DNA of 11,114 bases from a virus (taxonomy: Duplodnaviria > Heunggongvirae > Uroviricota > Caudoviricetes): IMG/VR virus record IMGVR_UViG_2531839195_000011. One strand, given 5' to 3'. The position numbers and the translations under genes were made by a program. The stretch's first letter is position 1. Each line of letters begins with the position of its first letter. Shown one piece after another: positions 2,379 to 3,144 of this stretch. The notes beneath the pieces are model-generated. The model had not been told where the DNA came from and ran no database searches. It saw only the letters and a list, made by a program, of their open reading frames with translations.

Positions 2379-3144
2379 GGTAATGACTCCAACTTACTGA
2401 TAGTGTTTTATGTTCAGATAATGCCCGATGACCTTGTCATGCAGCTCCACCGATTTTGAGAACGACAGTGACTTCCGTACCAGCCTTGCCAGATGTTGTC
2501 TCAGATTCAGATTATGTCGCTCAATGCGCTGAGTGTAACGCTTGCTGATAACGTGCAGCTTTCCCTTCAGGCGTGATTCATACAGCGGCCAGCCATCCGT
2601 CATCCATACCACGACCTCAAAGGCCGACAGCAGGCTCAGAAGACGCTCCAGTGTGGCCAGAGTGCGTTCACCGAAGACGTGCGCCACAACCGTCCTCCGT
2701 ATCCTGTCATACGCGTAAAACAGCCAGCGCTGACGTGATTTAGCACCGACGTAGCCCCAATGTTCGTCCATTTCAGCGCAGACAATCACATCACTGCCCG
2801 GTTGTATGCGCGAGGTTACCGACTGCGGCCTGAGTTTTAAGTGACGTAAAACCGTGTTGAGGCCAACGCCCATAATGCGTGCACTGGCGCGACATCCGAC
2901 GCCATTCATGGCCATATCAATGATTTTCTGGTGCGTACCGGGCTGAGAGGCGGTGTAAGTGAACTGTAGTTGCCATGTTTTACGGCAATGAGAGCAGAGA
3001 TAGCGCTGATGTCCGGCAGTGCTTTTGCCGTTACGCACCACGCCTTCAGTAGCGGAGCAGGAAGGACATCTGATGGAAATGGAAGCCACGCAAGCACCTT
3101 AAAATCACCATCATACACTAAATCAGTAAGTTGGCAGCATTACC
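2379..3144 (-). mobile_element. IS1 variant (766 bp), inserted in the integrase gene
   Basis: Ends ggtaatgactccaacttactgat (2379-) and atcagtaagttggcagcattacc (-3144) are the IS1 inverted repeats. Flanking 9-mers (gttccggtg / tgacccgtt) differ, so there is no target-site duplication. Protein differs from canonical IS1 at many positions. Confidence 0.9.
2394..3089 (-). CDS. insAB: IS1 transposase as a single in-frame InsA-InsB' fusion ORF (231 aa)
   Basis: One uninterrupted [43 protein letters not shown]...[17 protein letters not shown]...[13 protein letters not shown]. The frameshift window reads CACTTAAAACTCAGG (T4 on + strand at 2835-2838) where canonical IS1 has A6, so the insA frame continues into insB' without a stop. 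Confidence 0.85.

Follow-up and report, generated by a model that had tools for sequence, protein, structure and literature searches.

A shortened slippery run in an IS1 copy of Shigella flexneri K-404 that is probably an under-called homopolymer

The IS1 copy at positions 2379-3144 of the window (the whole 11,114-nucleotide stretch of DNA analysed in this work) has, as deposited, an A4 slippery run and a single InsA-InsB' reading frame. Comparison with other assemblies indicates that this A4 run is most probably, at a probability of about 0.78, an A6 homopolymer under-called in the draft assembly of Shigella flexneri K-404, with the two bases presumably present in the isolate. This reading was favoured on the basis of A6 at the orthologous copies, private indels in the contig that are contractions only, the draft status of the contig, the rarity of A4 elsewhere and the position of every A4 copy examined at a site that is not new.

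Under this explanation, an ordinary ancestral S. flexneri IS1 would have inserted in intR beside sitABCD, removing 422 nt of that gene, and the copy in the K-404 cell would be a normal 768-bp IS1. Such a copy would make mostly the repressor InsA, with the transposase InsAB' arising only via a rare -1 frameshift at the A6C motif, and the 231-aa "fusion gene" would exist only as an artefact of deposition.

Structure of the element as deposited

The IS1 element (2379..3144, minus strand) is 766 bp long as deposited, and orthologous S. flexneri copies are 768 bp. Inverted-repeat and end-motif searches placed its 23-nt terminal inverted repeats (TIRs) at 3122..3144 (IRL, insA-proximal, minus strand) and 2379..2401 (IRR, insB-distal, minus strand). 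The two arms are 87% complementary, and the IS1 end motif occurs at two sites only in the window, both of them element ends, where 0.01 matches would be expected by chance. In canonical IS1, IRL overlaps a weak promoter and is a binding site of InsA (PMC12428005). The ORF list and domain assignments gave a single InsA-InsB' fusion ORF of 231 aa (2394..3089, minus strand), with a GTG start at 3089 and a stop at 2394, that comprises Zn_ribbon_InsA (aa 1-36), HTH_Tnp_IS1 (aa 43-85) and DDE_Tnp_IS1 (aa 101-231). Scores for PF03811, PF12759 and PF03400 on this ORF were all far over cut-off, and the product scored 237.6 bits against the NCBIfam model NF033558 (IS1 family transposase; cut-off 100). 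Having TIRs of ~23 bp at both ends and the InsA zinc ribbon, the HTH and the IS1-type DDE domain, the element qualifies as a bona fide IS1 with a run two bases below the normal length, and is no chance pattern.

The shortened run is located at 2835..2838 (minus strand; A4 on the coding strand, T4 on the plus strand, A6 in orthologues), and the frameshift region reads CAC TTA AAA CTC AGG CCG CAG TCG GTA ACC on the minus strand. Canonical IS1 (768 bp, with a -1 frameshift at A6C; the iso-IS1 type common in S. flexneri) and the window copy have the same TIRs, the same domains and the same order and orientation of parts. Relative to the orthologous canonical 768-bp IS1, the window copy is 100% identical outside the run, and the alignment to 768-bp copies that an earlier note on this DNA had proposed returned a 2-nt gap within the A-run as the sole length difference. 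Canonical IS1 has A6C, with insA in frame 0 and insB' in frame -1, whereas the window copy has A4, no in-frame insA stop and one continuous ORF for which no frameshift is needed; it also differs in its 766-bp length and in having no target-site duplication.

Reduction of A6 to A4 has the same effect on the frame as a -1 shift, hence a fusion minus one lysine. The deposited product accordingly reads ...LKLRPQ... (231 aa), as against ...LKKLRPQ... in native InsAB' (232 aa), and the missing lysine falls at the end of the HTH domain, at the HTH-DDE junction. The earlier note had described a 766-bp IS1 with T4 at 2835-2838 and one 231-aa InsA-InsB' ORF lacking a lysine and a separate InsA; the first description agrees with the TIR positions and the motif reading, the second with the translation and the domains, and the frame logic behind both holds, as does the background on IS1 given in that note.

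Engineered in-frame elements provide the closest comparison for the deposited sequence. In IS1E.fs and IS1A.fs (A6C changed to GA2GA3C; PMC12428005), as in the window copy, insA and insB' form one ORF and there is no separate InsA. The two differ in that engineered IS1fs gains one base and encodes the native 232-aa InsAB', whereas the window copy loses two bases and encodes 231 aa, minus a lysine. They differ also in that the engineered element was shown to transpose ~900 times more (PMC12428005), whereas the window copy gives no sign of activity.

Insertion locus and source contig

The IS1 copy is surrounded by a split Rac-type prophage integrase gene, sitABCD and prophage tail-fibre genes. 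The 5' fragment of the integrase gene intR, encoding the arm-binding domain (2207..2378, plus strand; a 58-aa ORF named Arm DNA-binding domain protein), is cut by IS1, and the 3' fragment, encoding the catalytic domain (PF00589), occupies 3145..3784 (plus strand). The 5' fragment aligns to positions 17272-17617 of a reference locus (L001) and window positions 3143-3885 align to 18040-18782 of the same locus; between the fragments, intR lacks 422 nt. No target-site duplication of 8-9 bp was found at the window IS1, which is flanked by GATAACGGGTCA and CACCGGAACTGA, and this absence is attributed to the loss of the 422 nt with the insertion. The split intR thus looks like the product of an IS1 insertion plus an adjacent deletion.

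Orthologous loci were located through the truncated IntR protein in ten other S. flexneri genomes, which have the same layout, and the insertion, with flanks identical to those of the window, is common to all 10. E. coli layouts found through SitA are without the IS1. The run at the orthologous IS1 is A6 in a 768-bp element in 8 of the 10 genomes and A5 in one (CP058589.1), and the remaining genome has a 769-bp element with A6. Removal of two T from the run of four orthologous copies, that of 2457T included, yields the window IS1 exactly. By these comparisons the IS1 insertion in intR is old and the peculiarity of K-404 is run length only.

Contig AKMZ01000054.1 (11,114 bp) of draft assembly GCA_000268025.1, once reverse-complemented, matches the window exactly over its whole length; the assembly is that of S. 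flexneri K-404 from Bangladesh (PMC6397287). For a survey of indels, window positions 726-10650 (9.9 kb) were aligned with 8 orthologous loci. Indels private to the window amounted to four gap columns, all within three homopolymers of at least 6 nt: T6 to T4 in IS1, A7 to A6 at 4227-4232 and G6 to G5 at 9616-9620. Private indels of any other type were absent from this alignment, and of the 19 homopolymers of such length that the consensus contains, three are shortened. Genomes of the AKMZ-type accession series were presumably made by 454 pyrosequencing.

The second contraction lies at the start of sitA (4227..4232, plus strand), where the window has A6 and all 8 orthologous loci plus 3 further contigs have A7. 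With A6, the ATG at 4216 reads ATG CAC TCA ATA AAA AAG TAA; the annotated start of the 304-aa sitA is destroyed, and a 296-aa form from the ATG at 4239 is left. An error of the kind suspected in the IS1 run is the probable cause of this contraction as well. A7 at the sitA start was also found in a related draft contig (L027), the only other recorded contig with the variant DUF4376 protein of the window, which is a lineage-marking variant.

The third contraction lies in a prophage tail-fibre gene (9616..9620, plus strand), whose product is about 390 aa long with G5 instead of 422 aa. The run is G6 in 7 of the 8 orthologous loci and G4 in CP058589.1, so that two unrelated assemblies have a contraction here. 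CP058589.1 is separated from the consensus by a single SNP, yet its IS1 run is reduced to 5 and its G-run to 4. Since this assembly shortens both runs, 2-nt contractions of 6-nt runs do occur in such assemblies, where they are most plausibly errors.

The window contig thus combines a change in run length with sister private indels of the same kind, and independent assemblies are canonical in length at these loci (8 of 10 for IS1; 8 of 8, plus 3, for sitA). It resembles in this the homopolymer errors represented by A5 and A4 IS1 copies in E. coli and by CP058589.1, in which a run of at least 6 nt is contracted alongside others and the length elsewhere is canonical. Unlike usual homopolymer errors, the 2-nt contraction in the window restores a long ORF, with the result that annotation pipelines accept an intact transposase (WP_094106049.1, WP_286343118.1) and raise no pseudogene flag.

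A mismatch-repair mutator strain was considered as the cause of the contractions and judged unlikely, since a density of three frameshifting indels in 10 kb, extrapolated to a 4.6-Mb genome, comes to about a thousand frameshifts, which is implausible for a viable isolate. The pattern is that expected of homopolymer under-calling.

The contig also joins window positions 1-725, which contain an IS2-like end and a Dit-like phage fragment, to the sit locus via IS600 (about 726-1990). In other S. flexneri some 300 kb separates the two joined regions, which in CP034931.1, for instance, are at 2.33 Mb and 2.02 Mb. Six private SNPs of the window (891-1927) are located inside IS600. The junction reflects either a genuine rearrangement of the K-404 genome mediated by IS600 or a misassembly caused by the repeat.

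A4 copies in other assemblies

The exact 231-aa protein, with M as its first residue, is on record as WP_094106049.1 (IS1 family transposase, Shigella flexneri) for one contig, CP004057.1; the other members of its cluster are 232 aa long. The A4 copy of CP004057.1 (positions 9946-10711 of locus L002) is located inside a yhd-type amino-acid ABC transporter gene and is flanked by an 8-bp duplication, ATAAACGC. A 768-bp A6 IS1 is present 2 kb from it (L002 12531-13298), and the genes called in the 7.4 kb to the right of both IS1 copies are all of plausible full length. Counts of 13 contigs for the ORF at the insertion junction and 725 for the truncated permease place this A4 copy at an old site common to many S. 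flexneri. It differs from the window copy by one synonymous base (GGG versus GGT), and the same GGG is present at this locus in another genome. As the locus-specific SNP was retained, each A4 copy is the old resident of its own locus, neither being descended from the other.

E. coli B27 (NZ_AP027424.1) has four 766-bp IS1B-type A4 copies among at least 40 IS1 places, and RefSeq annotates these copies as intact, with a 231-aa transposase (WP_286343118.1). The site of the B27 A4 copy that was examined (about 826,594-827,359; L006, L156) is shared with strain HeN100, in which the element is 2 nt longer, and no frameshifted gene was found in the 50 kb around the B27 copy. New insertions of the variant were thus found for none of the three copies examined in this respect (window, CP004057.1 and one in B27), all of which are at sites shared with strains whose element has A6 or is 2 nt longer. 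Spread of A4 by transposition was rejected for the copies examined, each being at an old site shared with other strains, and nothing in these sequences suggests that an A4 element ever moved.

Run length was also surveyed in larger collections. An A4-specific 29-mer had no match in species-representative genomes or metagenome contigs, and a run-length-agnostic control pattern recovered at least 120 loci from the species-representative genomes, in which all 126 motifs were A6. In 5,426 complete E. coli genomes with about 70,000 IS1 places, an A4-specific 40-mer matched 11 places in 8 genomes, a rate of about 1.6 per 10,000 IS1 copies. The A5 equivalent matched 646 places in 185 genomes of the same set, with up to 36 per genome, and outnumbered A4 about 59 to 1. 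As A5 is out of frame and gives no transposase, the A5 counts most plausibly reflect assembly quality over biology. Of four E. coli A4 copies that were examined, three bear an annotation as frameshifted pseudogenes, and 2 of those 3 records have other frameshifted genes nearby. The IS1 slippery run is a frequent site of length discrepancy in "complete" E. coli assemblies.

Part of this material argues against an under-call in K-404. The A5:A4 ratio of about 59 to 1 in E. coli genomes makes a 2-nt error rarer than a 1-nt error; A4 and the identical 231-aa protein recur in a second, separate assembly (CP004057.1) whose neighbouring genes are full-length; and B27 has four A4 copies annotated as intact, with a clean 50-kb region around one.

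Alternative explanations and significance

That the A4 allele is real, all versions of this explanation taken together, is unlikely. K-404 and, independently, the CP004057.1 strain would then truly lack two bases and would have a natural constitutive IS1 encoding an InsAB' one lysine shorter and no InsA of its own, which is improbable to the same degree. In the version that survives best, itself decidedly doubtful, a 2-bp deletion would have created a constitutive fusion that is silent, either through repression by the InsA of ~100 sister copies or through weakening of the enzyme by loss of the lysine. Its intact ORF, the full scores of all three domains and the same protein in CP004057.1 are consistent with this version, as is the finding of no new site for either S. 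flexneri A4 copy or for the examined B27 copy. When InsA is provided in trans from a strong promoter, transposition of engineered in-frame IS1 falls back to the native level, a drop of about 1000-fold (PMC12428005), and IS1 accounts for a third of the approximately 345 IS elements in S. flexneri genomes (PMC5596473). Repression by InsA pooled from sister copies is therefore plausible. However, a single native IS1 copy failed to repress an in-frame copy in trans (strain IS1AE.fs, PMC12428005), which makes many-copy repression an extrapolation. The A6 orthologues, the two further private homopolymer contractions with no other type of indel and the draft nature of the contig also stand against a silent real allele, which would moreover need two independent and identical 2-bp deletions at different old copies when A4 has a frequency of only ~1.6 per 10,000 elsewhere.

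It is very unlikely that the deposited run is the consensus of a collapsed repeat, in which the IS1 would have been built from the reads of many copies and its run would belong not to this locus but perhaps to another, truly A4 copy. The linkage via IS600 of regions that are ~300 kb apart in other S. flexneri is consistent with such a collapse, and private SNPs inside IS600 are what merged repeats would give; however, the IS1 outside the run is identical to the orthologous copies, with no sign of a foreign copy, and a consensus of ~100 mostly A6 copies should itself be A6.

Least probable of all is a real and hyperactive copy, whose constitutive transposase would mobilise IS1 in cis and, when abundant, also in trans: the reading-frame argument is sound, in-frame engineering does raise transposition as the earlier note had stated (about 900-1000 times; PMC12428005), high InsAB' mobilises other copies in trans (PMC12903888) and B27 has four A4 copies among its IS1 places, but none of the A4 copies examined has a new location, species-representative genomes and metagenomes yielded no A4 although a self-amplifying allele should spread, the fusion is one lysine short of native InsAB' and only putatively active, and the whole of the evidence for an assembly error applies here too. 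The suggestion of a hyperactive copy in the earlier note consequently found no support, every A4 copy examined being at an insertion site that is not new. Among the three outcomes which that note had offered (a hyperactive copy, a copy inactivated by the missing lysine and a homopolymer sequencing error), the last is favoured by the A6 orthologues, the other private contractions and the draft contig.

If the A4 allele were real, it would be a natural IS1 without its translational brake, which would bear on the way in which Shigella genomes acquired their roughly one hundred IS1 copies. As the wild equivalent of the engineered hyperactive element, it would perhaps be checked only by the InsA of sister copies and could feed bursts of IS1 movement in Shigella. 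With the under-call as the preferred explanation, the value of the case as things stand would be that of a practical warning for annotation, and even a real allele gives no sign of activity in the sequences compared. Surveys of "frameshift-free" IS1 transposases should exclude such copies, and should check the orthologous loci and the other homopolymers of the same assembly.

Exact IS1 sequences were also encountered on very short or low-coverage contigs labelled as Streptomyces, Marinobacter, Georgenia and Leucobacter, and likewise on contigs labelled as Metabacillus, Nocardia, Streptococcus, Clostridiales and others (loci L054, L061, L069, L073, L075, L078, L079, L081, L086, L089, L095 and L101). 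These contigs look like E. coli-derived contamination and not like true hosts of IS1.
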